DNA of 64,000 nucleotides, taken from contig CAYIKZ010000002.1 of the NCBI GenBank assembly GCA_964364285.1, positions 3,800-67,799 of the forward strand. Reading direction: 5' to 3'. The translations under genes were made by a program, and so were the position numbers. The stretch comes from an uncultured Candidatus Saccharibacteria bacterium. GTDB lineage: Bacteria; Patescibacteriota; Doudnabacteria; UBA920; VMFF01. This document shows, piece by piece, positions 6,179-58,588 of the stretch; the first letter of the stretch is position 1; each line of letters starts with the position of its first letter. The notes beneath the pieces are model-generated. The model had not been told where the DNA came from. It did no database searches and saw nothing but the letters and a program-made list of their open reading frames with translations.

Positions 6179-6254
6179 ATCGCTATTATATAGTATATTT
6201 TTTAGCTGTGTCCTAGCAGTATTCCCATGGGTCTCTTCCTCAGGAGGACCAAGC

Positions 6255-6752: not shown

Positions 6753-6819
6753 AATAGGAGGAAATAACAGGAAGAGTTTTTCAGTTCACGTTGCGCGTAG
6801 TCCTCACACAGGAGAACCG

Positions 6820-7011
6820 ATGGCACGTATGAGAGCGTACTGGGATTCCGGATTTGACAACGCCGCTCGCCACAAGAAGAGCAAGGGAGAAGCCCGTCGT
6901 CGTCGGGAAGATCCCGACGCACAGGCGAAGCAAGTGGCGGCGCAGATCGCCACGCTTGCTCGCAAGAACGCGGTTGGATCCCGTTCCTCGCTGCTGCACA
7001 TCAAGCAGTGA
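6820..7011 (+). CDS. Small basic protein encoded in GC-rich island 1 (hypothetical)
   Basis: 63 aa, Arg/Lys-rich, AGGAG 5 nt upstream of the ATG. Confidence 0.35.
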   Translation: MARMRAYWDSGFDNAARHKKSKGEARRRREDPDAQAKQVAAQIATLARKNAVGSRSSLLHIKQ

Positions 7012-7139
7012 GCTTCCTGAACACAACAGCCACCACCTTGGGTAACACCAAGATGGTGGCTGGTTCATTCCTCATGGCTCCTTGACCGGAGCTTGACATC
7101 GGGTGTATACTTTTTCTTACTTTGTTTGTAATAAAAGGT

Positions 7140-23328: not shown

Positions 23329-23357
23329 AACCGCAGAGCTTTCTGCGGTTTTTAACT
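23329..23357. terminator. Bidirectional terminator between ndh-like gene and topA
   Basis: aaaaccgcagag-cttt-ctgcggtttt. Confidence 0.6.
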
Positions 23358-25584
23358 ATTCCTTTTTCTTTTTGTAAAATCTTTTCTTTCCTGTTTTTTT
23401 GGGTTTTGCTTTTTGTTCTTCCCAAAGCGTTTTAAGCTCTTCTTCAGTCTGTGGTTTCTTGTTTATGATGAAATTACAATCAGGATATCTAGAACAGGAA
23501 TAGAAAGGCTGACCACGTCCACGAGCTTTCTTTTCCACAACCTCTCCAATACCACAACTTGGACACTTAAAACCAACCTTAGTTAAAATCTTTTTAATTC
23601 CCTTACACTCTGGATACTTAGCACAACCTAAGAAGAAACCAAACCTTCCGCGTTGTATTTTCATAGGACCACTACAGATAGGGCAGAGCTCTCCTTTTGT
23701 TTTCTCTTCCAGCTCTTTAATCTTTGCTTCTTCCTCAGGCATTGGTTTAGTAATCTTTTCACCCTCAGGACATGCCAAGAACTTTCCAAACCTCCCGTAT
23801 TTTATAATCATTGGTTTGCCACAGTGAGGACAAGGAGTGTCAGAAACAGTAACCTGTTTTTCAACCTCTTCATTTTTTATATCCAAATGTTTTTTAAAAG
23901 GATCGTAGAATTCTTTAATGACTGGTTGCCATTCAATCTTTCCCTCAGCGATTTCATCAAGCTCATCTTCCATCTTTGCTGTAAACCCAATGTCTATGAC
24001 TTCAGGGAAGTGTTCGACTAAAAGATCGTTAACCAAAAACCCTATTTCAGTCGGATTATACTTTTTGTCTATCTTCTCAACATATTCACGATCTTGAATT
24101 GTAGAAAGAGTAGGCGCATATGTTGAAGGTCTGCCAATACCGTGTCCTTCCAAAGCTTTAATCAAAGTAGCATCAGAATATCTTGGAGGTGGTTCTGTAA
24201 AGTGTTGATTTGGAACAAGCTCTGAAAGCTCCAAAGCTTCGCCTTTAGAAAGTTCAGGTAATTGTCCTTCTACCTCTGACTCTTCATCATCACGCCCCTC
24301 AGTGTATGCTTTAATGAAACCTTCAAACTTAACAACCTGTCCATTTGCTCTCAATCCATATATTTTAGAGGATTTACCTTTGCTTTCAATATCAACTGCA
24401 GTTGCGTCAAAAACAGCTTGTGCCATTTGGCTTGCAATAGTTCTTTTCCAGATTAAATCATAGATTTTTTGTTGTCCTCGATCTAAGAAAGAACGAACCA
24501 TATCAGGATGACGCATTAAATCAGTTGGGCGGATTGCTTCGTGTGCTTCCTGTGCATTCTTTGATTTGTTGCTATACCTTCTTGCTTGACCATGATAATA
24601 GGTTTTACCAAAACGGGATTCAATGACTTCAGATGCTTGTTTCAAAGCAAACTCAGAAAGATTAACAGAGTCAGTACGCATGTAAGTGATTAAACCAGTT
24701 GAACCTTCTTCTCCAATATCAATACCTTCATAGAGCTGTTGAGCTATGACCATTGTTTGTTTTGCAGACATACCAAATTTTCGAGCTGCTTCTTGTTGCA
24801 AAGTTGATGTTGTAAAGGGTGCTGCTGGGTTTCTGTTGACTTCTTTCTTTTCTATTTCAGTGACTGTATACTTTGCACCATCTAAATCAGACACGACCTC
24901 ATTTGCTGAAACGTCTTTTACAATATCAAACTTTCCAAGAGTTTTACCATCAATTTTGTTTAACTTCGCAGAGAAAGAAGTTTTGTCCTTAGAAAACAAA
25001 GCATCAATACTCCAGTATTCTTCTTTAACAAATTTCTCAATTTCTCTTTCACGTTCAACAATCAAACGTAAAGCAACAGACTGAACCCTTCCAGCTGACA
25101 AACCATAACGGACTTTTTTCCAGATGAAAGGGGAGAGTCCATAACCAACCAAGCGATCTAAGATTCTTCGTGCTTGCTGAGCATCTACTAAATGCATGTT
25201 TAAATTACGAGGATGTGCTAAAGCCTCATCAATCGCGGTTTTAGTAATTTCATGGAATACAATTCTTTTTGGATCCTTATTCTTAAGTTTTAAGGCAGAC
25301 ACCAAATGCCAGGAAATAGCTTCTCCTTCGCGGTCTTCGTCAGTTGCCAGAATAACTTCAGTTGCTTTATCTGCTTTAGCTTTTAATTCACTGATTATTT
25401 TTTTAGCTTTAACTGGAACAATATATGTGGGTTCAAAGTTGTTTTCAATATCAATACCCATCTTGCTTTTAGGAAGATCTCTAACATGTCCGAAAGATGC
25501 TTGAACGTCAAAATCCTTTCCCAAGAAACGGGAAATTGTTTTTGCTTTAGTCGGAGACTCAACAATTACTAATGTTTTTTTCAT
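23356..25584 (-). CDS. topA: DNA topoisomerase I
   Basis: TOPRIM N-terminus (VIVESPTKAKTI), core domains and C-terminal C4 zinc ribbons (CPxCG repeats). Confidence 0.95.
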   Translation of the reverse strand: MKKTLVIVESPTKAKTISRFLGKDFDVQASFGHVRDLPKSKMGIDIENNFEPTYIVPVKAKKIISELKAKADKATEVILATDEDREGEAISWHLVSALKLKNKDPKRIVFHEITKTAIDEALAHPRNLNMHLVDAQQARRILDRLVGYGLSPFIWKKVRYGLSAGRVQSVALRLIVEREREIEKFVKEEYWSIDALFSKDKTSFSAKLNKIDGKTLGKFDIVKDVSANEVVSDLDGAKYTVTEIEKKEVNRNPAAPFTTSTLQQEAARKFGMSAKQTMVIAQQLYEGIDIGEEGSTGLITYMRTDSVNLSEFALKQASEVIESRFGKTYYHGQARRYSNKSKNAQEAHEAIRPTDLMRHPDMVRSFLDRGQQKIYDLIWKRTIASQMAQAVFDATAVDIESKGKSSKIYGLRANGQVVKFEGFIKAYTEGRDDEESEVEGQLPELSKGEALELSELVPNQHFTEPPPRYSDATLIKALEGHGIGRPSTYAPTLSTIQDREYVEKIDKKYNPTEIGFLVNDLLVEHFPEVIDIGFTAKMEDELDEIAEGKIEWQPVIKEFYDPFKKHLDIKNEEVEKQVTVSDTPCPHCGKPMIIKYGRFGKFLACPEGEKITKPMPEEEAKIKELEEKTKGELCPICSGPMKIQRGRFGFFLGCAKYPECKGIKKILTKVGFKCPSCGIGEVVEKKARGRGQPFYSCSRYPDCNFIINKKPQTEEELKTLWEEQKAKPKKTGKKRFYKKKKE

Positions 25585-25761
25585 CCACTCTATATATTAG
25601 TTGCAGAAACAGCGCTAATTACTTTAAGAGTTTAACTATATGTTTCAAAGGTTGTCAAATATACCTCTCAAAAACAACCCATAACTACAATCCTTAATAT
25701 CTAGGTGTGGTATACTTCTAAATGCATAGAAAAGGCAATAAACAAAGGGGGTTTAGTACCG

Positions 25762-25790
25762 TTGACAAAGTAACGGTATTGTGTTAAATT
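25762..25790 (+). promoter_or_regulatory. Promoter TTGACA-17-TAAATT (extended -10 TGT) within a 7-bp inverted repeat
   Basis: -35 at 25762-25767, -10 at 25785-25790. Inverted repeat TACCGTT...AACGGTA spans the -35. Confidence 0.5.
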
Positions 25791-25954
25791 ACAGTGTTAG
25801 TTGTTCCTTTATATATATTTCATCCAGCCCCCTATTTGCGAGTAGCGAAAATAGATATGAATCCCTCCTACTATTTGTAAGTAGCTGTCAAGTAAAGGTT
25901 GGCAGCGTTTGTTGTCTTCCTTTCACTCGTAAATAGGGTATTGTATGAAATATT

Positions 25955-25979
25955 AAAGCGCTTTTGCGCTTTTTTGTTT
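25955..25979 (+). terminator. Intrinsic terminator/attenuator hairpin in the leader of the GC-rich gene
   Basis: agcgc-tttt-gcgct followed by TTTTTT. No upstream plus-strand gene for it to terminate. Confidence 0.5.
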
Positions 25980-26057
25980 TTATGGTATATTGAGTTGCTC
26001 ACTCACACACGAGAGAGAGGCGCCGTGGCTAGACACGGAAGTCGAAGGAGGATTCAC

Positions 26058-26987
26058 ATGACGCATCGCGAAGTGCACTTCCGCGTGTCTGATGAAGACA
26101 TGCGGAAGATCGATGGGGTCTGGTCGAGTCTGAGAGACAAGGCTCAAAGGGGCCGTCTCCCAATCGACAAGATCATCCGGGAGCTCCAGCGTGCCAATGA
26201 AGGTCACTTCACGGCACCGCCGCTGACATACAGCGACGAGGAGTGTTCGGATGAAGAGAAGGGGATGTACAACGGAAACCACAAGCCTGCAAGCATCTGG
26301 GAGCAGGCGCAGTTCTGGAGTCGTATTCTCCCAGATGCGGACTTCTCGTATCTTGAGAAGTTCGCCGGAGGAGACCCTGATCTGTACCAGCTCGCCGAGC
26401 AGTGGGGTGTGGTTCCGAAGCCTCAGCTGCTTCGCGCTCCCGACTACTGGGGTGCCTACCAGCACCTCGTGCACACGTACTTCAGTTTGGACGGGGACTT
26501 CCCACACATCATGATGCAGTGGAGCGGTTTCATCAACGACCACAGCGACAGGCCACGTCTGACCAGGAAGACTGCTGCGTGGCATGAACGCATCACCGAG
26601 CAGACACCGGGAGACTTCCTGGTTTTCCCGTTCCAGTTCGGTGCTTTGCACGCCGGCAGATCTAGGCGCCGTGCCCAGGTTTGCTATGAGCACAACGAGA
26701 TTGGCCTCGGTCCTTACGAGGCATTGTGCTTGCTTGCAACGCATCCGAACCGGCTCGCGCAGGGCGCTCTCGGGTTCTACTGCATCGGTGCGAAGTGTGG
26801 CTGGCACAAGCGGGATCAGCAGGTTCCGAGTTCGGCGATGTATCCTAGCTGGTTCTGTCCGCGTTTCGGGTATTCCGACGTTGATCAGATAGCATTCGTT
26901 GACTGCGGCTTGCCGACGTACCAATCGAACCGCTACATTGGTTCGATCACGGCGTTCGAGTTGCCGATCGAGGAAGTCGCTGACTGA
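26058..26987 (+). CDS. Hypothetical protein encoded in GC-rich island 2 (no recognised domain)
   Basis: 309 aa from an ATG preceded by AAGGAGGA. GC-rich. The ORF-track start at 25899 lies in AT-rich leader and is rejected. Confidence 0.55.
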   Translation: MTHREVHFRVSDEDMRKIDGVWSSLRDKAQRGRLPIDKIIRELQRANEGHFTAPPLTYSDEECSDEEKGMYNGNHKPASIWEQAQFWSRILPDADFSYLEKFAGGDPDLYQLAEQWGVVPKPQLLRAPDYWGAYQHLVHTYFSLDGDFPHIMMQWSGFINDHSDRPRLTRKTAAWHERITEQTPGDFLVFPFQFGALHAGRSRRRAQVCYEHNEIGLGPYEALCLLATHPNRLAQGALGFYCIGAKCGWHKRDQQVPSSAMYPSWFCPRFGYSDVDQIAFVDCGLPTYQSNRYIGSITAFELPIEEVAD

Positions 26988-27007
26988 TCGGATCGCGTCA
27001 TTAACAA

Positions 27008-27062
27008 AGGACCTGGGTTCTGAGGATTGAAAAATCCAAAGAATCCAGGTCCTGCAGTTTTT
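27008..27062. terminator. Long nested hairpin followed by T-run (bidirectional terminator)
   Basis: ggacctgggttc...gaatccaggtcc around an inner ggatt/aatcc stem, then gcagttttt. Confidence 0.5.
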
Positions 27063-27074
27063 AATACACGTTTT

Positions 27075-27605
27075 TTAAACCTTTGCTTTTAACTCAAGAA
27101 GAACCCTTGCTTTAATTGCATCAAAAGGAATTTGTTCCAGTTCTTCATCTGAAAAATCCTGTAATACAAAAGCATCTGTTGGCATGTGTTCCTTGTTTTC
27201 TCTGCTTTCAACGCCAATGCGTATTCTTCGGAACTCCTTTGTTCCCAAATAGTCGATTAATGAGGTAACTCCATTGTGTCCTGCAGATCCCGAGTTATCC
27301 GTAAACTTAATTGTTCCTAAAGGCAAGTCAACATCATCATGCAAAACCACAATATCTTTAGGTGTTAACTTGTAGAAATCAAGAATCTGTTTAACAGCTT
27401 TTCCAGAGTCATTCATAAAGGTTTGAGGAAAGACGAAAAAGGTTTTCTCTGGCATATGTATTTCACAAATCTTTGAATCAAAACTTGAATTACATGAGAT
27501 TGTTTGTAGTTCTTTTAATATATGATCCAAAGCCAAGAACCCGACATTGTGTCGGTTGTTTTTGTATTTCTCTCCTGGATTTCCAAGTCCAATTATTACC
27601 TGCAT
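27075..27605 (-). CDS. pth: Peptidyl-tRNA hydrolase
   Basis: MQVIIGLGNPG...NRHNVGF Pth signature. Confidence 0.9.
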   Translation of the reverse strand: MQVIIGLGNPGEKYKNNRHNVGFLALDHILKELQTISCNSSFDSKICEIHMPEKTFFVFPQTFMNDSGKAVKQILDFYKLTPKDIVVLHDDVDLPLGTIKFTDNSGSAGHNGVTSLIDYLGTKEFRRIRIGVESRENKEHMPTDAFVLQDFSDEELEQIPFDAIKARVLLELKAKV

Positions 27606-27608
27606 ATA

Positions 27609-28973
27609 TTAATAGTTTACCATTTCTTCATTAAATTTTGGATTACCACGTTTTGCTTGAAGTTTTAGTATAATCGGTGTGCCCCAGAAACCAAGTTCTT
27701 TCATAATGGAGTTTTGAATGAATTTTCTAAACTGCATTGAGATTGCAGAAGGTTCATTAACCATCATTAAGAAAACCGGGGGATTAGTACTTGTTTGTTG
27801 TAGGGAATATACTTTTGGAACTCTTTCGTCTCTAAGTCTTTGTGGTTGTCTAATCTTTTGCTTAGCGTAGAAAAAGTCTTTTAAAGTTTGACTATCAATT
27901 TCTTTTTTCCTGTTTACTTCAATAGTTAGGATGTAGTCCAAAACTTCTTTAACACCCTCTCCGTCTTTTGCTGAGATTGGAACAGCAGGAGCCCACCAAA
28001 GGAAAGGGAAGTAATCAGGAAGTTGTGAGAAGAGCTTTTCTTTTTTCTTTGGAGCAAGTAAATCAATCTTGTTTGCAACCAAAACAAATCCTTTAGATGC
28101 TTCAACTATTTCTCCTGCAATTCTTTGATCTTGCTGTGAGATACTTTCTGAAGCATCGATCATAAACAAACAGACATCAGCTTTGCGCATTGCGCGTATT
28201 GTTTGAAGAGCCGCGTATATATCAGGAAGCGCTTGGTTCTTCTCTTTGCGCTTTAACCCAGCAGTGTCTAAGAATTTAATCTTGTGTCCTTTGTAAGTTA
28301 TATCAGTATCAACAACATTTCTTGTTGTTCCTGGAACACTTGAAACAACAACTCTTTCTTCACCAATGATTTTGTTAAACAAAGAAGATTTACCAACATT
28401 TGGTTTACCAAGAATTGCAACGGATATAGTGGAGGGGTCTTTTTCAATTTGTCCGAATCCTTGTTTTTTCAAAGAATCGGTAATGCCATCAAGCAAATCT
28501 CCAGTACCCATTCCTGAAACAGCAGAGATTGGAAAAATATTTTTAAATCCAGTAAAAGAATATTCTGAAACCATTTCGACAAACTTTTTAGGAGAGTCGA
28601 TTTTGTTAATAACCAGGAGAACATCTTTCTTTTGTTTCCTGAGTTTTAACATAATGTTTCTGTCGATTGAGTCAGCAGGTTTTTTACCATCCAAAACATA
28701 AAGGATTAAATCAGCTTCACTGATTGCAATCTCAACTTGCTTTTGAATATTTTTCTCTAGCTCATCGCGTTGTTCCAGGATTATTCCAGCAGTATCAATC
28801 AAAGAGAAATCAACTGCATTCCAAGTAGCAGGAGCATAAAAACGATCACGGGTTGTTCCAGCAACTGAAGATGTTAAAGCAATTCTTGCTTCAACAAGTT
28901 TGTTCATTAATGTTGATTTTCCTACATTTGGTTCTCCGATAATTGCAACCAATGCTTCTCTTTCGTTAGACAT
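27609..28973 (-). CDS. der: Ribosome-biogenesis GTPase Der (EngA)
   Basis: Two tandem GTPase domains (GEPNVGKS, GKPNVGKS) plus a KH-like C-terminus. Confidence 0.9.
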   Translation of the reverse strand: MSNEREALVAIIGEPNVGKSTLMNKLVEARIALTSSVAGTTRDRFYAPATWNAVDFSLIDTAGIILEQRDELEKNIQKQVEIAISEADLILYVLDGKKPADSIDRNIMLKLRKQKKDVLLVINKIDSPKKFVEMVSEYSFTGFKNIFPISAVSGMGTGDLLDGITDSLKKQGFGQIEKDPSTISVAILGKPNVGKSSLFNKIIGEERVVVSSVPGTTRNVVDTDITYKGHKIKFLDTAGLKRKEKNQALPDIYAALQTIRAMRKADVCLFMIDASESISQQDQRIAGEIVEASKGFVLVANKIDLLAPKKKEKLFSQLPDYFPFLWWAPAVPISAKDGEGVKEVLDYILTIEVNRKKEIDSQTLKDFFYAKQKIRQPQRLRDERVPKVYSLQQTSTNPPVFLMMVNEPSAISMQFRKFIQNSIMKELGFWGTPIILKLQAKRGNPKFNEEMVNY

Positions 28974-28975
28974 AG

Positions 28976-30361
28976 CTATTTACCTCCTGCGACAAAAAGC
29001 ACCAGGTCGACTCTTGCAGTCATACTTTCTGGCTTTGGCAAAGCTTTTGTGCTTACTAATTGTTGAATATATGTAATAGTGGCGGGTTTGTCTTCATTAA
29101 CCTTGTAAAAAGCACTGTTGCTTAGCGGTAACCCTCGGTATGGTACTTCATAAACAACAACACCTGCATTAACTAATTGTTTTTTGATTAAGTTGTAATA
29201 CTCAGGATCTCTCCCCGCGTTTTCTAAGATTAAAGAAGCAGACTCTGTTTTAACAGCTGTGTTACTGAAACTGTTTTTAAAGTATGTTTGCACTTGATTA
29301 GTTGTCACTCCTTCACATGGGAAGATTACATAACCAACTTCTTCTTTCACTCCATCACAAAACATTCCTGCTTCTAAGTCAATGCTCTCTGAAGTAATTT
29401 TAACTTCAGGAGATTTTAATATCTCAGCAAGATGTAGTAATTCGCTTGGTTCGACATTTGTGTGAGCACGATCTGCAAGAATATCTAAGAGATCATTGAT
29501 TGTTCCTGAGCTTGAAAGAATACCTAAGTCTTGAACCTTGGTTTTAAAAGCGTCTAAAACTTTTGCTTGACGTATGCTTCTAGCAATATCTGAGTCTTCT
29601 AAATTCGTGCCGTGTCTTGAACGAACAAATTGCAAAGCTCTTGTACCACTCATTTTTTCAAGACCTTTGTTAAAAACCAAGGTTGGTAAGTATCCAAACG
29701 TATCATTTGGATATTGGCTGTCTGTAAAACTGGTATCAATCTGAACATCAATACCACCTAAGCGATCAACTGCTTTTTCAAAACCTTTAAAATCAATACT
29801 AGCAAAATATGGAATGGTTAGCCCTGTAATTTTGTCAGCAGCTTTTAAAGCTTTTTCTCCTGCTTCATTAAAATCATGGCGTGGTTGATATCCAGCAGCA
29901 AAAGCAAAATTAATCTTTTGTTTTCCGTCTTCCCAGTAGTAATCGCGGGGGAGAGAGGTCAGAGCAACCTGTTTAGTTTCAGGATTAATGCTTGCAAGAA
30001 TAATAGTGTCAGTTAAAAACGGACCATCGTGTCCTTCACCACCATACCCAAGAAGTAAAATATTAATCCTTCCTTCTGATTCTCCTTTGAGAGACGACGT
30101 GCTTCCTGAAAACACCAAAGTAGTTACCTTTTTAAAGAAAGAAGATTTATGTACAAAAACTTTGCTTCCAAAAGAATATGCTTTAGAAAAAAGAACTCCT
30201 AAGATGATGCATAGGATAATCAGGGCTGGCCAGAATATTCTTGGGAACCAGCGCCTTTTTGTTTGTGGTTGTATATCTTGAAATTGTTGCATAGTAGCTT
30301 GGTTAGTATATCTGAAAATGAGCCTTTTGCGAAGCAAAAGAACCCTCTTAAACGCTTGCAA
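28976..30361 (-). CDS. LytR-CpsA-Psr (LCP) family cell-envelope phosphotransferase
   Basis: N-terminal TM, LCP core INILLLGYGGEGHDGPFLTDTIILASI...LPRD, C-terminal extension. The start may be at 30292. Confidence 0.75.
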   Translation of the reverse strand: MQAFKRVLLLRKRLIFRYTNQATMQQFQDIQPQTKRRWFPRIFWPALIILCIILGVLFSKAYSFGSKVFVHKSSFFKKVTTLVFSGSTSSLKGESEGRINILLLGYGGEGHDGPFLTDTIILASINPETKQVALTSLPRDYYWEDGKQKINFAFAAGYQPRHDFNEAGEKALKAADKITGLTIPYFASIDFKGFEKAVDRLGGIDVQIDTSFTDSQYPNDTFGYLPTLVFNKGLEKMSGTRALQFVRSRHGTNLEDSDIARSIRQAKVLDAFKTKVQDLGILSSSGTINDLLDILADRAHTNVEPSELLHLAEILKSPEVKITSESIDLEAGMFCDGVKEEVGYVIFPCEGVTTNQVQTYFKNSFSNTAVKTESASLILENAGRDPEYYNLIKKQLVNAGVVVYEVPYRGLPLSNSAFYKVNEDKPATITYIQQLVSTKALPKPESMTARVDLVLFVAGGK

Positions 30362-30429
30362 TACTTAAAAAGAACAGGTATATTGAATTAGTTAAGTTCT
30401 ACTTTTTAGCTCTAGGTGGCGACTGTTTT

Positions 30430-30506
30430 GGACGATTAGCTCAGCTGGTTAGAGCGCACCGTTCACATCGGTGAGGTCAAAGGTTCGAGTCCTTTATCGT
30501 CCACCA
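30430..30506 (+). tRNA. tRNA-Val (anticodon CAC)
   Basis: Manual fold: acceptor GGACGAT/ATCGTCC, anticodon stem CACCG/CGGTG with loop TTCACAT, T arm AAAGG-TTCGAGT-CCTTT, CCA. Confidence 0.85.
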
Positions 30507-30524
30507 AAGTTTCAAACAAAAAAC

Positions 30525-31142
30525 ATGCAAACAGATCCAGAACAACAGAATACAGAAAACCAGGAAACCGAAAGCGGTTTAAAAGAGCTTGGACTTTTTG
30601 TCTGGGACTTGGTTAAGGTTTTAATAATCGCGATGGCAATAATCTTGCCGATTAGATACGCTGTAGCTCAGCCTTTCATTGTTTCCGGTTCTTCCATGGA
30701 ACCCACCTTCTATTCTGGTGAATACTTAATCATCAATGAATGGACATATCATTTCGACAATCCACAAAGAGGCGATGTAGTAGTTTTTAAATATCCTAAA
30801 GACACAAGTCAATATTTCATAAAAAGAATAATTGCATTACCTGGTGAAAGAGTTAAGATAGAGGAAGATAACGTCATTATTTACAACAAAGAACATCCAA
30901 ACGGATGGGTGTTAGATGAATCATACATTCCTTCGTCAGACACAACTCTTCCAGTAGGTGATGGTATGACAACATTGGGAAGCAATGAGTACTATGTTTT
31001 GGGTGATAATCGTTTAGCATCATCCGATTCTCGTTTCTGGGGCCCAGTTCCTAAAAATGACATCATCGGAAAAGTTTTCGTTAGAGCTTTTCCTTTCAGT
31101 GACTTAAAGAAATTTGAAACAATTGAATACGGGGTTAAATAA
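30525..31142 (+). CDS. lepB: Signal peptidase I
   Basis: TM anchor and catalytic Ser box VSGSSMEPT. The ORF-track start at 30471 overlaps the tRNA; ATG 30525 is used. Confidence 0.8.
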   Translation: MQTDPEQQNTENQETESGLKELGLFVWDLVKVLIIAMAIILPIRYAVAQPFIVSGSSMEPTFYSGEYLIINEWTYHFDNPQRGDVVVFKYPKDTSQYFIKRIIALPGERVKIEEDNVIIYNKEHPNGWVLDESYIPSSDTTLPVGDGMTTLGSNEYYVLGDNRLASSDSRFWGPVPKNDIIGKVFVRAFPFSDLKKFETIEYGVK

Positions 31143-31143
31143 T

Positions 31144-32448
31144 ATGAATATAAAGAAAAAAACAACAGTTTCTCAATCAAGCAAACCACAATCACTTCCT
31201 GGCTTAGCCGATATTATTCCAGGACAGGATAATTACTGGGATTTTGTAAGCTCTCATCTTCAAAGAATTGCTCGTGGTTATGGTTTCAACAGAATTGAAA
31301 TGCCACTCCTTGAAAATATTAGTTTGTACGCTCAAACAGAATTCGCAGAAAACAATGAAGCGGTTGATTTTGTAGACAACAGCGCAACCAAAATTGCTGT
31401 TAGAGCAGCAAGCATGCCATCTCTGATGCGTGCTTTTCATGAATACAAAATTCCGGAAGGACACAAGGTTTCAAAATGGTACTACCTGTCTCCGGTTTTA
31501 AGCTATGACCAGAAACAAAAGCAATACATTTCTTCTTGGCAATATGGTTTTGAAATGTTTGGCGAGTTTTCTCCTTTAAACGAGGTTCAGATGATTAGCT
31601 TGCTTTGGAAGTTCTTCAAAGCAATAGGTTTACAAAATGTTTCTTTGGAGATAGACAGCTTGGGTGACGAAGCTTGCAAAGGACAATACGAGGAAGCATT
31701 AACCGGATACTTACAAAGCAAGAAATATGAACTCTGCAATGATTGTGTGGCTGCAATTGAAGAGTTCCCAATGCAGGTTTTCAGATGCAACAACCTAGAG
31801 TGCAAAACCGTTGCAACAGACGCTCCACAATCAGTGGATTTCTTAGACACTGCTTGCCACAAACATCTTACAAATGTTTTAGAAGGATTAGATGAGTTGG
31901 GAATAATGTACGCGTTAAATCCAATGCTTGCTGGAAAAAAAGGAACATCTAAAACAACCTTTGCTTTCAAACACACAGAAACAACTCCAACAGGAACAGT
32001 AGACAGATTTCTAGGAGAGGGAGCATACCATGATCAGATATATAAAGAACTGACCGGTAAAAACGTGGTTTGTTTTGGTTTCCATTCAAACATTGAAAGC
32101 TTACAAAAAGCAGTTAAAGAACAAAAACAAGAACAGATTGAAACATTAGCAGCAGCAAAAGCAGAAGTTTTCTTAGCGCCACTAGGTGACCTTGCTTCAA
32201 AGAAAGCAATCAAGCTATTCTCAGAGCTTTGGGATGCACAGGTTTCAGTTCATGACCATTTTGGAGGAGAGGGAGTTAAGAACCAGCTTAAACTAGCAGA
32301 GGGATCAAAAGCCATGATTGCTTTAATCATTGGACAAAAAGAAGCTATGGATGACATGGTTATTCTAAGAGATGTTAAATCAGGAATGCAGGAAGTTTTC
32401 AGATATGATCAGATAATAGAAGAAGTTAAAAAAAGATTAGGGAAATAG
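31144..32448 (+). CDS. Histidyl-tRNA synthetase paralogue, probably catalytically inactive (HisRS-like)
   Basis: Full HisRS architecture (catalytic core, insertion domain with Cys pairs, anticodon-binding domain). Motif-2 and motif-3 arginines are replaced (LSYDQKQ..., GEGAYHD versus GGRYD). The canonical hisS is at 44798. Confidence 0.65.
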   Translation: MNIKKKTTVSQSSKPQSLPGLADIIPGQDNYWDFVSSHLQRIARGYGFNRIEMPLLENISLYAQTEFAENNEAVDFVDNSATKIAVRAASMPSLMRAFHEYKIPEGHKVSKWYYLSPVLSYDQKQKQYISSWQYGFEMFGEFSPLNEVQMISLLWKFFKAIGLQNVSLEIDSLGDEACKGQYEEALTGYLQSKKYELCNDCVAAIEEFPMQVFRCNNLECKTVATDAPQSVDFLDTACHKHLTNVLEGLDELGIMYALNPMLAGKKGTSKTTFAFKHTETTPTGTVDRFLGEGAYHDQIYKELTGKNVVCFGFHSNIESLQKAVKEQKQEQIETLAAAKAEVFLAPLGDLASKKAIKLFSELWDAQVSVHDHFGGEGVKNQLKLAEGSKAMIALIIGQKEAMDDMVILRDVKSGMQEVFRYDQIIEEVKKRLGK

Positions 32449-32449
32449 C

Positions 32450-32782
32450 ATGGAAGAATGTGTATTTTGTAAAATCGTAAACAAAGAAGAACCAACTGAA
32501 CGAATCATATTTGAAGATCAGGATTTTTTGGTTTTTCCCTCAAAGTTTCCATCAGCAGAGACACATCTTTTGTTGATCCCTAAAAAACACATTCTTTCAA
32601 TGGCACATGTTTCTGAAGAAGAAACTGACATCTTAGGGCGTTTACTTGTTCTTTCAAGAAAAATTGCTGAACTAGAAAGCATAAAAGACTACAAATTGGT
32701 TTTTAACATCGGGAAATATCTGCACGTGCCACACTTACATCTACACCTTGTTGCAGGGAATCTAGAGAACGACCGAGTCTAG
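32450..32782 (+). CDS. HIT-family (histidine triad) nucleotide hydrolase
   Basis: C-terminal HVPHLHLHLV histidine-triad motif. 110 aa. Confidence 0.85.
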   Translation: MEECVFCKIVNKEEPTERIIFEDQDFLVFPSKFPSAETHLLLIPKKHILSMAHVSEEETDILGRLLVLSRKIAELESIKDYKLVFNIGKYLHVPHLHLHLVAGNLENDRV

Positions 32783-32796
32783 CAAAGAAGAAACAG

Positions 32797-32825
32797 TGCC
32801 GCCATAACAGGGCGGCATTTTTGTT
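32797..32825 (+). terminator. Terminator
   Basis: tgccgcc-ataacag-ggcggca followed by TTTTTG. Confidence 0.55.
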
Positions 32826-32911
32826 TTAGAGAGAATTGCTCATTTGACCAAAGCCCATTTTTGGGGTATATTCATATCAGTTTTAATCAGTTTTTACATC
32901 CTTAGAAGGGG

Positions 32912-33157
32912 GTGACAGTAGTGGTAGAAGTTAAAAAGAAAGAAGGCGAGTCATTCGAAAGTTTACTCAGAAGATTTAACCGCAAAATACAACAAAGCGG
33001 TGTTTTAGTGCGTGCTAGAAAAACAAGATTTTTCGAGCCAGTAAAAAGCAAGCGATTTGTCAGAGAAGACGCTCGTAGACGCGCTGATTTAAAAGAGAAA
33101 AGAGAAGAGTTAAAAAAATCAGGTAAATTACCTATTAAAAAGTACGGTAGATATTAA
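32912..33157 (+). CDS. rpsU: Ribosomal protein S21
   Basis: Basic 70-80-aa protein with an S21-like core. GTG start at 32912 or 32921 after AGGGGG. Confidence 0.7.
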   Translation: MTVVVEVKKKEGESFESLLRRFNRKIQQSGVLVRARKTRFFEPVKSKRFVREDARRRADLKEKREELKKSGKLPIKKYGRY

Positions 33158-33163
33158 ACCCTC

Positions 33164-33601
33164 ATGTTAAAAGAACAAATTGACGCAGACTTAAAAGCAG
33201 CAATGATCGCAAAAGACCAGACAACACTGGATACTTTAAGAATGCTTAGAGCACGCATCAAAAACGAAGAAATAGCTAAGGGAAAAGATTCCACAGACGA
33301 AGATATTATTTCAATACTCGGTTCTGAAGTTAAAAAAAGAAAAGACTCAGTGACCGCGTACACACAAGGGAACAGACTAGAGCTAGCAGAAAAAGAACAA
33401 AGCGAAATCACAGTTCTACAAAAATATTTACCAGCTCAGCTTTCAGAACAAGAAGTAACACAGATCATAACAGAAGCATTAGCAGGGCAAACATTCCAAG
33501 CTTCTGAGTTTGGTAAGGCCATGGCTTTAGTAATGCCTAAGTTAAAAGGTAAAGCTGATGGTTCTTTAATTTCAAAAATCTTGAAAGAAAAGCTTAGTTA
33601 A
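33164..33601 (+). CDS. GatB/YqeY-domain protein
   Basis: 145 aa with the YqeY-like helical pattern. Confidence 0.75.
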   Translation: MLKEQIDADLKAAMIAKDQTTLDTLRMLRARIKNEEIAKGKDSTDEDIISILGSEVKKRKDSVTAYTQGNRLELAEKEQSEITVLQKYLPAQLSEQEVTQIITEALAGQTFQASEFGKAMALVMPKLKGKADGSLISKILKEKLS

Positions 33602-33610
33602 AAAAAACAA

Positions 33611-34855
33611 ATGCCACAACAACAATATCTTGTAGGTTTGGATATAGGGTCATCATACGTTAGAGTAGTTGTCGGAAAGATTGATGAAGAATCCAAAGTT
33701 CCAAGCATCATCGGAGTAAGCGAAACACCATCTTCTGGAATCAGAAAGGGAGTTATCATTGACATTGATGAAGCTGTTTCAACAATTTCTCAAGCACTTG
33801 AAAAAGTTGAACGCATGACAGGTATTGCTGTTACCGAGGCAACAGTAGCAATTGGTGGAGCACATATCTCATCAGTTGAATCACATGGAGTCATTGCAGT
33901 TTCCAGAGCTGATGGTGAGATCATGGAAAATGACATCATAAGAGTGATAGACGCTTCACAAGCGATTTCAATTCCAGCGAACAGGGAAATAATACACGTC
34001 ATACCTAAAAATTTTGTTGTTGACGGACAAACAGGAATAAAAGATCCGCTCGGTATGACAGGTATTCGTTTAGAAGTTGATACAGTCATAGTTCAGGCAG
34101 CAGCACCATTCATAAAAAACTTAACTAAAGCAATACAGCAAGCTGGTATAAAGATAAACGACATGGTTTTAGCACCTCTTGCCGCAGCTCAAGCAGTACT
34201 AACAAAGCGCCAAAAAGAACTTGGCGTTGCTTTAGTAGATTTGGGCGGTGGCACGACAGGTTTAGTTGTTTTTGAAGAAGGACAACTCTTGCACACATCA
34301 GTTGTTCCTGTTGGTTCAGCACATATTACAAACGACATTGCGATTGGCCTCAGAACTTCAATCGAAACAGCAGAGAAAGTTAAACAAAGATATGCTCATG
34401 CAATACCAAGAGAAGTAAACAGAAGCGAAGAAATAGATCTTTCTGAGATTGATTCATCTGAAGAAGAGCGTGTTTCAAGACACCATGTTGCTGAAATATC
34501 AGAAGCTCGCCTTGAAGAAATCTTTGATCTAGTAAACAAAGAATTAAAGACCATAAATAGAGACGGACAACTGCCGGCCGGGGTTGTTTTCACAGGGGCT
34601 GGCGCAAATCTTCCGGGCATACTAGAATTAGCTAAAAAGCAGCTTCGATTACCAGTACAACTTGGAGTTCCCGCAAACGTAAATACAATCATTGACCGGG
34701 TGGAGGACCCTGCATACGCAACAGCAGTGGGTCTAGTTCTTTGGGCTTTTGAATACCATCATGGTAGTGCTAAAGCACCAAAGTTTGGATTTGATATATT
34801 ACAGAATGCAAAATTGGATCCTCTAAAAAAGCTGTTTAAGAAGTTTTTGCCATAA
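33611..34855 (+). CDS. ftsA: Cell division protein FtsA
   Basis: Actin-like ATPase ([14 protein letters not shown]) immediately upstream of ftsZ. Confidence 0.9.
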
Positions 34856-36678: not shown

Positions 36679-36816
36679 AGAGTAGATGATCTGCGCGATG
36701 GGAGCTCGGATCGAATCTAGACGGAGGGTGCAGGGATAATTTTAAGCAACAATTCAAAACAAAGAACGCAACGGACTTCTACGCAAACCGAGGCGTTTTT
36801 TGTTTGTCCAAAGGAT

Positions 36817-36845
36817 TTGGCAAAACCCGTACCTTATGTTAATTT
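36817..36845 (+). promoter_or_regulatory. Promoter TTGGCA-17-TAATTT (extended -10) upstream of GC-rich island 3
   Basis: Same architecture as the promoters at 25762 and 52773. Confidence 0.4.
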
Positions 36846-36915
36846 TATATGTCGCGGTACATGCCGTGATACAAGTAGGTTCACAGTCTGACACGGAGGA
36901 CTCTTGGACAAACTG

Positions 36916-37620
36916 ATGTTGCTTAACCGTATGGTGTTGGCTCTTGACGATATGGAACCGGATCAGATCGGTGAGCTGATCGCTGCACTTGCTCACAATG
37001 ATCTTCTTCCATGGTCGTTCAAGGTCAACGATCGTTGGGTCGAGAGTGGAAAGCAGACGGTACCGATGTTGCGTCTTGCGGCCGGCGGTGCTCACGTCAG
37101 GGTGCTCGCAGACCTGAAGCTCAGCGACACCCCCAAGACCATGAGCGCAAGCGCGAGGCGGGTGCGCGAGGCGGGTGCAGTTGCACTCACAATCCATGCC
37201 AGCTGCGGCCTTGATTCCATCAAGGCTGCGCTTGAGCACGGTCCAGCGGAGATCATTGCTGTGACCTTGCTCACCTCGATCAATCGGATGAACTGCCTGG
37301 CGCTCTACGGGCGTGAGCCGATTGAGCAGGTCAAGATCTTTGCCAAATACGCGCTCGAGAGCGGGGTTGGCAATCTGGTCTGCTCCGGGGAAGAAGTCGC
37401 GACGCTTCACGAGATGTACCCTGGCATCGGTCTGCTGGTTCCCGGTGTTCGTATGCCGGGTAGCGACCTTCGGGGTCAGAAGCGCATCACTACGCCATGG
37501 GATGCTTTCAACAACGGTGCAACGCGCATCGTTGTCGGAAGCGAAGTCACGATGGCGAAGGACCCAGTGGCTACGTTCGAGAATCTGCTCGCGGAAACTG
37601 AGAAGCACGTGGAGTTCTGA
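36916..37620 (+). CDS. pyrF: Orotidine-5'-phosphate decarboxylase-family protein (PyrF-like), GC-rich
   Basis: LALDD near the N-terminus, K-L-S-D-T-P-K-T (OMPDC KxxDIPNT-like) and C-terminal RIVVGSEV. ATG 36916 is used; a TTG at 36904 is possible. Confidence 0.65.
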   Translation: MLLNRMVLALDDMEPDQIGELIAALAHNDLLPWSFKVNDRWVESGKQTVPMLRLAAGGAHVRVLADLKLSDTPKTMSASARRVREAGAVALTIHASCGLDSIKAALEHGPAEIIAVTLLTSINRMNCLALYGREPIEQVKIFAKYALESGVGNLVCSGEEVATLHEMYPGIGLLVPGVRMPGSDLRGQKRITTPWDAFNNGATRIVVGSEVTMAKDPVATFENLLAETEKHVEF

Positions 37621-37640
37621 CACCAACCGGAGGAGGAAGG

Positions 37641-38336
37641 ATGATAGTAACTGGGGGAAGGTGGCAGAACGAAGCTGTGACAAGCTTCCTAGACTCCCTC
37701 TGGGCCTTTGGCGCCATCATGGGCGTCGACAAGTCGCCAGAGGGCAAGGGGTTTCGGCTTGCGCTTCACGAGCGTAACCCAGATGCCCCACTCTCGCCGT
37801 TCTACTTCAACCTGCGGCGGGTCCAGTCGCACCCGGCGACCCTGTACATGGCAGCACAGATGATGAGGGAGAAGATCATCGAGGATATTGATGGTGGTGC
37901 TTTCCAACTCATCGCCGGCATTCCAACTGCCGGTACACCGTTTTCGACAGCCTTGTCCCTGCTGATGCATCGCGGACAGGTGTCGCCGCGGATGCAGGCG
38001 AAGGGGCACGGGGTTGGTGATCTCGTGGATGGTGACTTCCATGACGGGCAGACCGTTCTGTTGGTCGACGATCTGATCACCGAGGCTGATTCCAAGCTTC
38101 GTGCGATCGACATCCTGCAGCGCGCCGGTCTCATCGTTCAGAATATCGCCGTCCTGATCGACCGGGAACAGGGCGGCAGACAGCGGCTTGAGGCTGCTGG
38201 GTACAAGGTTCACCCCGTCTTCACGGTCACTGAAGTCTTCTCCTACTACCTGGCTGCTGGTGAATCCACCCAGTCCGCCTACGACCAGATCGTGGAGTAC
38301 CTCGACCGCGAAGCCGAGAAGCACGCGAACCAGTAA
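37641..38336 (+). CDS. pyrE: Orotate phosphoribosyltransferase (PyrE-like), GC-rich
   Basis: PRPP-binding motif VLLVDDLITEADS and DREQGG. N-terminal PyrE-like flexible loop. Strong RBS GGAGGAGGAAGG. Confidence 0.75.
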   Translation: MIVTGGRWQNEAVTSFLDSLWAFGAIMGVDKSPEGKGFRLALHERNPDAPLSPFYFNLRRVQSHPATLYMAAQMMREKIIEDIDGGAFQLIAGIPTAGTPFSTALSLLMHRGQVSPRMQAKGHGVGDLVDGDFHDGQTVLLVDDLITEADSKLRAIDILQRAGLIVQNIAVLIDREQGGRQRLEAAGYKVHPVFTVTEVFSYYLAAGESTQSAYDQIVEYLDREAEKHANQ

Positions 38337-38509
38337 CAAACAATCGACAAGAGGAAAAACCGTCCCTGGAGGAGGACGGATGAAAGAAACAGGCTATGGC
38401 TCTGGTGCAGATTTTGTACCAGAGCCTGCTGTTTTTTAGTGATTGTGGATAAACTTGATTTAGTTGTTTAAAAAGGTTGAAATTATTGGATTTTTGATAT
38501 ATTTGCCTA

Positions 38510-39149: not shown

Positions 39150-42100
39150 ATGAGTGAAAACTTACAAATCAGAACCAAGAACGCACTATCCGAACTCGGA
39201 GAAAAAATCTTTCTAGATCGTTATGCAGTTAAAGATGCTAAAAAAGAAACATTGGCAGTAGGAGATACTGTTGTCATCAATGTTAATTTAAAAACAGGAC
39301 AGAGAGAAATTGGAACAGTTAAGGAAGTTGATAGGTTTAGCAAACAAGTAGAAGTAACCTTGCGCGATGGCACAGTAGAGAAACGCGCAATAGAGCATGT
39401 AGACAAACCTTTGGAAACAGTTCCTGAACAAATGTTTGAGCGCATAGCTCGTCATATTGCAAGCGTTGAGAAAACTCCAGAAAAACAAAATGAATGGCAG
39501 GGGAAATTTAGAGAACTAATGGATGACTGGAAATATGTTCCAGCAGGAAGAATCTTTACTGGTGCAGGAACCGGTCAAAACCTAACTTTTTACAACTGCT
39601 ATGTCATACCATGTCCTCAGGATTCTCGTGGTGGTATTTTTGACACACTCAGACAAATGGCAGAAATCATGTCCCGAGGGGGCGGTGTTGGTATAAACGT
39701 ATCTACGTTGAGACCAAGATACGCATATGTTAAAGGTGTTAATGGAAGATCCTCTGGTTCTGTTTCCTGGGCTTCTTTGTATAGCTTTGTTACAGGTTTA
39801 ATTGAACAGGGTGGTTGTTTTGGACCGAATGAAAGAATTGCAACCAATGTTGGTTTGGTTCCTGCAAAAGAATTGGCTGACCGTGTTGAAGCAGGTGAAG
39901 CAATATACGCCCAAACCCATAAAGGTATGCGCCGAATAACAGCTAAATTCAGAAATGGCGTGAAAGAACTTTATGAAGTAACAACTGAGCGTGGATTTAG
40001 CACCGAGATAACAGCAGATCATAAGGTTGCAGTACTATTAAACGGCCGAGTTGAAACAACTGCTTTAAAAAATTTGAAGCAAGGAGACGACATCTTGTTG
40101 TTGCTTGGCAATGCTACTGGTCAAAATTATGTGTCGCTTAAGAAAAGTGATTACAAGCGTTCTGTAATGAGTACGACCTTAAATACTGATGTTCGTCTTC
40201 CTGAAATGCTCAATGAAGATTTGGCATACCTTGTTGGATATATGTTGGGTGATGGATATGTGAGTTGGGGTAAAAAAGTAAATTGGTCTGCTCCTAAAGC
40301 TGTTAAAATGGCAACCGCCGATGCATACCCTGAAATTCGTCAGAGAATTGTTGATGCGATCCAAAATCTTTTTGGTGTTGATGCAGTAATTGAAAAAGGC
40401 GACGGTGCTTGCCAAAACGTTTCTTTGTATTCTCGCATTGTAATTGAGTGGCTCTTAGAAAATGGTTTACTCAAATCTAAAGCAAAAGATATTCGTGTGC
40501 CAGAAAGCATTTTTCGCTCACCGACCAGCGTGACTGGGTCATTCATAGCCGGGTATTTTGACGCTGACGGTTGCAACCGTGGAGCAAAGGGTGGTTATGG
40601 TATTGACAGCATAAGTCGTGAAATGCTCACAGACGTGCAACAGCTTTTAGCTGCAAACGGTGTCTTGTCTGCTATTCGTGCAACTGATCGAACAGAACAA
40701 GGTTGGCAAACAATCTATCGTTTAAGTGTTACTGGAAATCAATTTAAAGAGCGTTTTGCGGATTTGGTTTCTACTGCCAAGCGTTCTGACTTCAATGGCA
40801 AGCGCGATATGTTTAATACTTACCCGTCAGAAATTTTAGCTGCTGTCGGTGTGCGTAGCAAGGACCGTCAGGGAATCTATGATGGCACATCTCCGCAGGT
40901 TTCTTTTAATCAACTTGTACACATCCAAAAACGTTTGAATACTGTCGAACAATATTCTGCCGCCCAATATCTTGATGACATCATGCACACCATTCCTGAC
41001 ACGATTACCGCAATCAAATCGGTTGGTAAAAGCGATGTTTATGACTTTGAGGTTGAAGATGTCCATTTGCTCAGCGGTGGTGGTGTTTACACTTCAAACA
41101 GCAGAAGAGGCGCTTTAATGCTCATTCTAAACGTTTGGCATCCTGATATTGTTGATTTCATTAATGCAAAGAGAGAAGCTGGAAAAATAACTAACGCGAA
41201 TATTTCTGTTGGTATTACTGATGATTTTATGGAAGCAGTTAAAAATGATGCTGACTGGGATTTGGTTTTCCCAGACACATCAGATCCTTTGTATCAATCA
41301 GAGTGGGCTGAGACACAAGGTGATATTAAAGCATGGCAAAAACTTGGTGGTAAAGTCGTTGTTCATAAAACAATGAAAGCAAAAGAAATCTGGGATCAAA
41401 TCATTTCCTCAGCATGGTCTTCAGCAGAACCTGGTGTTTACTTCATTGATCGCGCAAACTATCTTTCAAATTCTTACTACTACGCAGCATTGCCTTGTAC
41501 CAATCCTTGTGGTGAACAACCACTTCCTGCTTGGGGTGTTTGTAACCTAGGACATGTTAATCTTGCAAAACATCTTACAAACAATGAAGTTGATTGGCAG
41601 AAATTAAAAGAAACAGTAAGATACGCAGTTCGTTTCCAGGACAATGTCATAGATGCAACACCATACTTCTTTGATGAGAACTTTAAACAACAAATGTCTG
41701 AAAGAAGAGTTGGTATGGGAACAATCGGACTCGCAGAAATGTTAATTAAATTAAGAATTAGATATGGCAGTGATCAAGCAATTCAATTCATCGACAAACT
41801 ATATCAATTCATTGCAGTTACATCTTACGAAACATCAGTAGAAATCGCTCGTGAAAAAGGATCTTTCCCTCAATTTGATGCTGAAAAATTCTTAGAAAGC
41901 GGATACATGAAAGCAATGCCTGAATATATTCGTTCATTAGTAAGACAATACGGTGTAAGAAACGTAACAATAATGACTCAGGCACCAACTGGAACAATCG
42001 GAACAATGGTTGGAACATCAACAGGAATTGAACCATTCTTCTCATGGACATACTTTAGAAAGAGCAGACTTGGTGTTCATGAAGAAAAGATTAAACTAGC

Positions 42101-52772: not shown

Positions 52773-52801
52773 TTGACATGGTAAGTCCTTGGTGTTAATA
52801 T
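52773..52801 (+). promoter_or_regulatory. Promoter TTGACA-17-TAATAT (extended -10) upstream of GC-rich island 5
   Basis: -35 at 52773-52778, -10 at 52796-52801. Confidence 0.45.
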
Positions 52802-52947
52802 GCTTTTTCTACAGTATTCTCCTGCAGCCGCTCGCGTGAGCGAAGCGGAAGCAACACAAGCCCAGAGGGCGAGTGGCTGTAGGAAACCCTTTCGTTCTGG
52901 CACAAGGGTCCAGATACGAAGGACAACTCGTTCGGAGGAACCATCTG

Positions 52948-53163: not shown

Positions 53164-53193
53164 CAAGGCGGCGCCGGGTCACCAGGGAAGCTC

Positions 53194-53237
53194 GCCCCGA
53201 GGCGCTCGGGGCGGGCAACCCCAGGTTTTCCTGGGGA
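53194..53237 (+). terminator. Two consecutive GC hairpins (terminator)
   Basis: gccccgag-gcg-ctcggggc, then ccccagg-tttt-cctgggg. Confidence 0.5.
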
Positions 53238-58566: not shown

Positions 58567-58588
58567 ACGAACAACTAAAAAAGTATAT

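Follow-up and report, generated by a model that had tools for sequence, protein, structure and literature searches.

A conserved structured RNA adjacent to a variable gene slot in Doudnabacteria

The analyzed region lies between topA (23356–25584) and pth (27075–27605), both encoded on the minus strand, in a stretch of 64,000 nucleotides (nt) from an uncultured bacterium of the Doudnabacteria (contig CAYIKZ010000002.1). This stretch is called the window, and all positions refer to it; related loci are denoted by L numbers. Two elements follow each other on the plus strand, a structured RNA and an open reading frame (ORF) for a protein of 309 amino acids (aa), which is convergent to pth. The window chromosome is AT-rich with a GC content of about 37%, in contrast to about 58% for the ORF (26058–26987), and the GC content at third codon positions (GC3) is 0.71–0.73 in the ORF versus 0.26–0.31 in the adjacent genes. 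In the original prediction, the arrangement had been interpreted as an attenuation- or riboswitch-like leader, or as a repressor-operator region, in front of a foreign gene for an unknown protein. All sequence features of that description were confirmed, among them a TTGACA-17-TAAATT promoter, which in addition has a TG extension, two 15-bp direct repeats at 25832 and 25871, and a strong ribosome-binding site (RBS; AGGAGG) upstream of the GC-rich ORF with the motifs FPFQFGALHAG and CIGAKCGWHKR. The ATG of the ORF is located at 26058, not at 26059.

A structured RNA with a covarying fold

Copies of the RNA were gathered by scanning metagenome DNA with a pattern of the two repeats (L020, L021, and L023), and more copies were found via the neighboring Pth protein. 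A covariance model was built from the copies of the window clade and was then run on distant loci. Two alignments were used: A4 comprises the window, L002, L020, L021, and L023, and A7 comprises nine RNA sequences that were fitted to the model. As controls for covariation, the 3′ partner strand was slid by 1–3 columns, and 500 shuffles were performed. In A7, 97.4% of the cells were in standard pairs, and compensatory changes were present in 17 of the 61 pairs. The slid controls had only 2–6 compensatory pairs and 38–46% paired cells, and none of the 500 shuffles reached the observed values. A separate RNAalifold run yielded 18 compensatory pairs. The covariation search that had been proposed for the leader thus revealed a conserved structure, and the region 25797–25979 encodes a conserved structured RNA with a fold that is backed by covariation. 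In the window, the covariance model matched positions 25794–25987 with 231.7 bits. The minimum free energy (MFE) of 25797–25985 was −56.9 kcal/mol (z = −6.8 versus shuffled sequence).

According to RNAalifold and pair counts, the fold is a three-way junction, which consists of a closing helix P1 of 27 bp and the helices P2 and P3 (Table 1). Three of the 27 pairs of helix P1 showed compensatory changes, and seven had changed on one side only. The apical loop of helix P2, UGAAUCCCUCCUAC, was identical in all nine aligned copies and also in L044, and a partial distant copy in L045 has retained UCCCUCCUA. The stem below the loop covaries (AU to GC, UA to CG). The direct repeats, CTATTTGcgAGTAGC and CTATTTGtaAGTAGC, are strands of two of the covarying helices. 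The paired repeat pattern occurs once in the window versus 0.00 times expected from 100 shuffles, whereas single loose copies of the motif with up to two mismatches were at the level of chance (6 versus 6.7 expected). All eight stem pairs of the terminator covary between lineages, and its sequence is wholly different between lineages, but the pairing has always been kept. This terminator had been regarded as a leader element without an upstream gene to terminate; it is present, but it would mark the end of a small RNA gene.

Promoter P1 upstream of the RNA was found by a consensus scan and has 10 of 12 matches. Its −35 box and its extended −10 box are invariant in L002, L020, L021, and L023, whereas the spacer is variable. 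Promoters of the type TTGACA-17-TG-extended-10 were also found upstream of the diverged copies of the RNA in L039, L041, and L042. An inverted repeat (ACCGTT...AACGGT) surrounds the −35 box in the window, as had been reported, but this repeat has not been kept in L020 and L021 and is probably meaningless.

Within the window clade, the RNA is almost invariant; an inspection of A4 by eye showed about 12 differences to the L020 copy over 185 positions (about 93% identity), and the flanks are 82.6% identical. Diverged copies were detected in Doudnabacteria with Pth proteins that are 69–76% identical to that of the window, with scores of 112–114 bits for L039, L042/L043, and L044 and 99 bits for L041. 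In L045, with 61% Pth identity, the match was partial (39 bits) and was ended by the nearby contig end. In L042/L043 and L044, the gene order is pth, RNA, dprA, topA, and the terminator of the RNA is only about 10 nt away from the stop codon of pth, which is convergent; therefore, no gene is present downstream of the RNA. The same order of pth, RNA, dprA, and topA is found in L039, dprA is truncated in L041, and the window clade has no dprA between the small RNA and topA (25585–25760). An ORF of 225 aa follows the RNA in L039 and an ORF of 166 aa in L041. Both are GC-rich and had no Pfam match, and they are unrelated to the window family and to each other. The promoter, the fold, and the terminator have thus been kept where there is nothing to regulate, which indicates that the RNA is a gene in its own right and not an attenuator. 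It appears to be an independent, lineage-conserved small RNA gene with its own sigma-70 promoter and terminator.

The RNA could not be assigned to a described family. At the gathering threshold, the only Rfam 15 matches in the window were tRNAs, and the small RNA was not matched. Rfam scans of three diverged copies, at the gathering and at permissive thresholds, yielded just noise, with matches that were far below the gathering score and inconsistent between the copies. Three identities were rejected by eye, i.e., 6S RNA, because the presumed central bubble would have just 1 nt on its 3′ side; signal recognition particle (SRP) RNA, because the domain IV motifs could not be recognized; and T-box RNA, because no such motif was seen. 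An RNA of a retron (msr/msd) or the template repeat (TR) RNA of a diversity-generating retroelement (DGR) was rejected because a reverse transcriptase (RT) is absent and because the RNA occurs where the family ORF is missing. A literature search did not retrieve a described regulatory RNA for Doudnabacteria. To our knowledge, few regulatory RNAs have been described for bacteria of the candidate phyla radiation (CPR) in general. Based on these comparisons, the small RNA would represent a new RNA family without an Rfam match.

Three additional candidates were discarded. An ORF of 51 aa at 25781–25936 is regarded as non-coding, since it has a 1-nt indel in L020 and L021 and the sequence covaries at the RNA level. 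A viral origin of the RNA was rejected because it was not found in the viral contigs that were searched. The matches of the repeat pattern in the metagenome loci L018, L019, and L022 turned out to be unrelated tandem repeats; L018 (1–420) and L019 contain a 42-nt tandem array with CTATTTGAAAGTAG, which is unrelated to the RNA and represents false positives of the pattern.

Table 1. Positions of the features between topA and pth in the window
Feature	Position	Strand	Remarks
Promoter P1 of the putative small RNA	25762–25790	+	−35 TTGACA at 25762–25767, 17-nt spacer, TG-extended −10 TGtTAAATT at 25782–25790
Putative small RNA gene, about 183 nt	25797–25979	+	5′ end deduced from the −10 box, 3′ end given by the U-tract of the terminator
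Helix P1, 5′ strand	25815–25843	+	Pairs with 25925–25953; includes direct repeat 1 (25832–25846)
Helix P1, 3′ strand	25925–25953	+	RNAalifold and pair counts
Helix P2, apical loop UGAAUCCCUCCUAC, 14 nt	25858–25871	+	Complementary to the Shine-Dalgarno (SD) sequence GGAGG
Direct repeat 2, 3′ strand of helix P2	25871–25885	+	Pairs with 25847–25857; A7 consensus structure and covariation
Helix P3, hairpin with internal loop	25894–25923	+	Compensatory changes in 5 of 11 pairs
Intrinsic terminator of the small RNA	25955–25979	+	Terminator scan; stem 25955–25972, T-run to about 25979
Putative promoter P2 of the ORF	25983–25991	+	Extended −10 TGgTATATT directly after the terminator, no good −35
5′ untranslated region (UTR) of the ORF, 60 nt	25998–26057	+	Hairpins 25998–26019 and 26023–26038; SD AGGAGG at 26046–26051
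ORF, 309 aa, allele A	26058–26987	+	GC3 0.71; apparently undiversified; the unannotated CPR family of the protein includes DGR targets
Long hairpin past the ORF stop codon	27009–27052	.	Folds and L023 breakpoint

The variable slot and its two alleles

The content of the slot between the terminator of the RNA and the 3′ end of pth differs among Doudnabacteria: some have no gene there, others have unrelated GC-rich ORFs, and others carry one of two deeply diverged alleles of a single protein family. The comparison of the window with L023 was especially informative. The two sequences are 97.2% identical over 27057–34047 and 93.7% identical over 24117–26054, but between these regions, at 26055–27056, there is no nucleotide homology. 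Nevertheless, the slot of L023 also encodes a GC-rich family member of 309 aa, which is only 26% identical to the window protein (E = 2e-51) and is called allele B. Conversely, the flanks of L002/L001 are just 90% identical to those of the window, yet allele A was kept at 89% protein identity. Allele A is carried by the window, L001/L002, L007, L008, L024–L026, and L029, and allele B by L020, L021, L023, L031–L034, L036, and L038. This distribution is discordant with the relatedness of the genomes, which points to recombination in the conserved flanks or to a long-standing polymorphism. The segment 26055–27056 would have been swapped, presumably by homologous recombination in the flanks, which comprise the RNA, promoter P2, and the UTR at the 5′ end and the hairpin and pth at the 3′ end.

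The 5′-UTR is common to both alleles until about 26054, where the nucleotide homology with L023 stops. In A4, the stems of the UTR are conserved, and the loop of the first hairpin is variable. The extended −10 box of the putative promoter P2 is invariant in the window, L002, L020, L021, and L023, although the neighboring bases vary. The long hairpin is also the 3′ border of the swapped region, because the homology with L023 resumes at 27057. Compensatory changes were found in this hairpin among the allele-A copies, and the allele-B copies carry a different, analogous hairpin. It is probably a bidirectional terminator that is common to the ORF and the convergent pth gene.

A short sequence of this region recurs elsewhere. 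The 15-mer GAAGGAGGATTCACA, which comprises the SD motif and the spacer of the window ORF (26044–26058), is also present in L039 after the stop codon of the 225-aa ORF (L039:4531–4620), and its counterpart TAAGGAGGATGTGTAG is found at the same place in L041, between pth and the ORF in the slot (L041:4531–4615). These sequences could be remnants of an older junction or binding sites for the loop of the RNA.

The protein family and its link to diversity-generating retroelements

The 309-aa protein had no match in Pfam, NCBIfam, PADLOC, or the PDB sequences. Profile searches with 82 family members against PDB and Pfam also remained without a match, and no Pfam model, including that of the FGE-sulfatases, fits any of these members. 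The AlphaFold2 model of the protein had a predicted local distance difference test (pLDDT) score of 82, and a Foldseek search with the model against PDB and BFVD retrieved nothing significant. The structure prediction weakly suggests a C-type-lectin-like fold. A signal peptide or a transmembrane segment was not evident by eye (no predictor was used), and the product would be a cytoplasmic protein with a predicted, distant C-type-lectin-like fold.

The family is large and comprises 597 cluster representatives at E ≤ 1e-3. It has a conserved core with the motifs PGDFLVFPFQFG...GRSxRRAR...NEFGLGPYE...THPxR. The profile of the family alignment A1 matched the window ORF, which itself is a row of A1, with E = 8e-70, allele B with 2e-51, and paralogs in L009 and L013 with 1e-96 to 1e-108. 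Members with an organism name belong to Patescibacteria, and a few are found in metagenome-assembled genomes (MAGs) labelled Gammaproteobacteria. The MAGs of the latter type, annotated as 'uncultured Gammaproteobacteria', are L009, L011, L016, and L017, and the GC content of L009 is 36%. The RT encoded in L009 is 79% identical to the RT of the Kuenenbacteria contig L013, and at least in the case of L009, the bin probably belongs to the CPR and was labelled wrongly. The covariance model did not detect the RNA upstream of distant family members. A conserved partner gene of the family was not found; the neighbors are unrelated (rpoC/yebC, amidohydrolase, nucleotidase/RuvX, major facilitator superfamily transporter, pth), with the exception of the RT gene in L009 and L013.

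In these two loci, a 345-aa RT of the RVT_1 family is flanked by two family paralogs. L009 contains an intergenic TR of 125 nt upstream of the RT gene, and this TR is matched by the terminal 125 nt of each paralog gene. Mismatches between the TR and the variable regions (VRs) are located at TR adenines in 15 of 16 and 19 of 20 cases (34 of 36 in total), and the final 27 nt or so, which encode WGSASGF, are the same in the TR and the paralogs. This adenine-mismatch pattern is the signature of DGRs, and thus, the family contains DGR targets with a C-terminal variable region. Judged from this signature, members of the family are hypermutated at the C-terminus by DGRs in some other CPR bacteria. 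A CPR-restricted clade of DGRs (clade 2) is on record (PMC8144416). The view that the window gene is a foreign gene for an unknown protein could therefore be retained only in part: its composition is foreign and it has no recognizable domain, but it is not wholly unknown, as its family includes DGR targets.

The copy in the window seems not to be diversified. Searches with tblastn using the RTs of L009 and L013 found nothing in the 64-kb window and nothing in loci other than L009 and L013. A TR was also not detected, as there is no second copy of 26650–27060 in the window, and the ORF is the sole family member there. The 3′ end of the ORF has no nucleotide similarity to the TR of L009 and its conserved 3′ end. 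Moreover, the ORF is the same in L024, L025, and L026. Its overall dN/dS is 0.12–0.15, and that of the VR-equivalent codons 246–310 is 0.20 for allele A and 0.06 for allele B; for the comparison genes pth and der it is 0.02–0.04. These values indicate that the ORF is an undiversified copy under purifying selection. Together with the lack of a TR and an RT in the window, this suggests that the product would work as a fixed ligand-binding protein.

The high GC content is not restricted to the window copy. GC contents of family genes are 5–12 points above those of their own loci in most loci examined (L009, L010, L011, L013, L014, L015, and L016), in L017 the difference is just 2 points, and in L009 and L013 the family genes are up to 20 points above the adjoining RT gene (GC content 0.29–0.30). 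The high GC3 of the ORF has been maintained over a dS of about 1 inside each allele class. A GC3 of about 0.72 for a DGR-target family in genomes with a GC3 of about 0.28 might be selected and not be the trace of a recent transfer.

Similarly high GC3 values were found in three further GC-rich islands of the window, which shows that foreign-looking genes are a genome-wide feature, and the slot beside the RNA may be no more than an intergenic site that is permissive. The island at 36750–38400 (GC3 0.68–0.72) contains genes for an orotidine monophosphate decarboxylase (PF00215, 36904–37620) and a phosphoribosyltransferase (PF00156, 37641–38336), i.e., pyrimidine-synthesis genes that look foreign in the window genome. 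The island at 6141–7100, between uvrC and uvrA, includes an ORF without a Pfam match that ends at 6752 and likely starts at about 6255 (GC3 0.63). In the island at 52795–53310, ORFs of both strands overlap, and a 48-nt tandem repeat is located at 53030–53125. In addition, three features of the window outside these islands were observed. An ORF of 1318 aa at 39150–43106 is similar to ribonucleotide reductases and has an apparent intein-like insert, as seen by inspection of the translation alone. A promoter-like sequence of 43 nt (TGTTGAC...GGGTATAAT) occurs twice, at 58535–58577 and 59209–59251 (674 nt apart, 86% identity). A repeat with a period of 21 nt at 56361–56570 possibly encodes heptad-like repeats.

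Proposed function of the RNA and comparison with known systems

The preferred interpretation is that the region contains two adjacent but separate genes, one for a trans-acting small RNA and one for the 309-aa protein with its own promoter P2, and that the latter gene resides in a variable, exchanged slot. We assign a probability of about 0.6 to this interpretation. The small RNA would be transcribed from promoter P1, start at about 25797, and stop at the intrinsic terminator at about 25979; it would be abundant. As a trans-acting regulator, it would pair via its C/U-rich loop UGAAUCCCUCCUAC with the SD regions of mRNAs and reduce their translation, and its possible targets include the neighboring ORF. 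The ORF would be transcribed from the extended −10 promoter P2, and its transcript would end at the hairpin that is shared with pth.

Several observations weigh against this interpretation. Both transcription starts, the termination at 25979, and the activity of promoter P2 are predictions; promoter P2 lacks a −35 box and was not called by the promoter scan, and the U-tract of the terminator in L041 is poor. Wherever an ORF is present in the slot, it is co-oriented with the RNA and directly downstream of it. Furthermore, of 11 different family loci that were inspected, just 2 had an RT nearby, and an RT and a TR could be located outside of the 64-kb window. Lastly, the initiation regions of both alleles pair with the loop better than those of most window genes, so that a functional coupling of RNA and ORF is possible.

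Such a coupling is the core of the first alternative. The RNA and the ORF would form a functional pair, in which the anti-SD loop or the 5′ UCCUUU tail of the RNA sequesters the SD motif of the ORF in trans or on a read-through transcript, similar to an RNA antitoxin or a repressor that silences a costly foreign gene, and the slot would be an expression-controlled landing pad. The duplexes of the loop with the initiation regions of allele A and allele B have energies of −17.2 and −14.0 kcal/mol, respectively, compared to a mean of −8.0 (standard deviation 3.6) for 56 window genes. In the MFE structure of the read-through transcript, the SD motif is paired with the 5′ tail, conservation of the UCCUUU tail is limited to the clade with the 309-aa ORFs, and the layout resembles that of type III toxin-antitoxin loci. 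However, a CCUCC loop pairs with any strong GGAGG motif and is thus unspecific, and pairing with the ORFs in the slots of L039 (−8.8 kcal/mol) and L041 (−4.3 kcal/mol) is poor. For these reasons, a specific coupling is regarded as unlikely, and attenuation, which is discussed below, as clearly improbable. In addition, the RNA is the same next to both alleles, which are 26% identical, and it also occurs with an empty slot; the 15-bp repeats do not form complete tandem units, PADLOC yielded no match, and the ORF is under what looks like ordinary purifying selection.

As a more speculative extension, to which we give little weight, the RNA and the slot could together be an expression platform for incoming foreign GC-rich genes in reduced genomes. 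The strong promoter and the terminator would be located upstream, the incoming genes would be expressed by read-through or from a minimal promoter, and the anti-SD loop would occlude their RBSs. Such a platform would be functionally analogous to the Pc/attI region of integrons combined with an RNA silencer, but without an integrase.

The next alternative is the leader of the original prediction, i.e., a cis-acting attenuator or riboswitch with a terminator that gates transcription from promoter P1 into the ORF. The order of promoter, structured RNA, terminator, and ORF is real, and the RNA and the ORF are co-oriented throughout the window clade. By eye, an antiterminator could be formed by AGCGUUU at 25903–25909 and the 5′ half of the terminator (25956–25962); L041 has a weak terminator, and the start of the following ORF is only about 30 nt away from it. 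The structured, conserved RNA of that proposal could indeed be verified, but the control of the ORF could not, as no gene follows the RNA in L042/L043 and L044, and the ORFs that follow it in L039 and L041 are unrelated. Moreover, an invariant extended −10 box is present past the terminator, a match to an Rfam riboswitch or leader was not found, and the covariation agrees with a single fold plus the terminator. This alternative is therefore judged to be improbable.

It is very improbable that the ORF is an active DGR target with the TR and the RT elsewhere in the genome and the hairpin behind its stop codon as a target-recognition structure. Homologs in the family are true DGR targets, remote DGR targets are known, the CPR-restricted clade 2 exists, and the hairpin behind the ORF is long and GC-rich; but the absence of a TR and an RT within 64 kb, the low dN/dS of the VR-equivalent codons, the identity of the ORF in L024–L026, and the lack of similarity to the L009 TR all argue against ongoing diversification. 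A role of the direct repeats and of the −35 inverted repeat as DNA operators of a repressor, as had also been considered, is scarcely credible: a motif of 14–15 nt is repeated downstream of a strong promoter, but the repeats are strands of covarying helices, the inverted repeat is not conserved, and a regulator gene is not adjacent.

Taken together, these findings have several implications. The small RNA offers a fold with covariation support, a defined promoter and terminator, and an invariant loop that is open to direct testing. About 600 unannotated cluster representatives are now linked to DGRs, and many members, including the window copy, appear to be fixed and have no RT. The slot is a natural experiment in which gene flow and anomalies of composition can be studied for uncultured bacteria with streamlined genomes. 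Finally, a layout of promoter, RNA, terminator, and ORF is not sufficient for calling an attenuator.

The two genes and the slot can be compared with several known systems. Variable proteins of DGRs with a C-type-lectin fold include Mtd of a Bordetella phage, TvpA of Treponema, and TaqVP of Thermus. In contrast to these, the window copy is apparently undiversified, without a TR or an RT in 64 kb, no Pfam model matched the 82 family members scanned, and the gene is 8–20 GC points above the host genome. Riboswitch and attenuator leaders also have a structured RNA and then a terminator 5′ of an ORF, but in the case described here, the RNA stands alone in two lineages, and the ORF has a separate promoter-like element. 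Type III toxin-antitoxin loci such as ToxIN, CptIN, and TenpIN share the order of promoter, repeat-containing RNA, intrinsic terminator, and protein gene; however, tandem full-length RNA repeats and a ToxN/AbiQ-like endoribonuclease were not found in the window locus.

Variable hot spots are known beside tRNA and tmRNA genes, and integrons carry arrays of gene cassettes. Similar to these, the slot is fixed after a conserved RNA gene and contains varied single foreign-looking ORFs that are co-oriented with a strong upstream promoter. The slot differs in that no integrase is among the genes annotated beside the slot, the exchange apparently occurs via flank homology, and attachment-site repeats or attC-like core sites were not recognized by eye at the locus. 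A functional parallel of the RNA itself may be trans-acting small RNAs with C-rich loops that pair with SD motifs, such as RsaE/RoxS and the RNAIII type of S. aureus. The window RNA is not related to them in sequence or by Rfam, and it differs in its closing helix of 27 bp and its three-way junction. Like them, it would be encoded by a stand-alone gene with a promoter and an intrinsic terminator of its own, and its apical loop is invariant, C/U-rich, and complementary to GGAGG.

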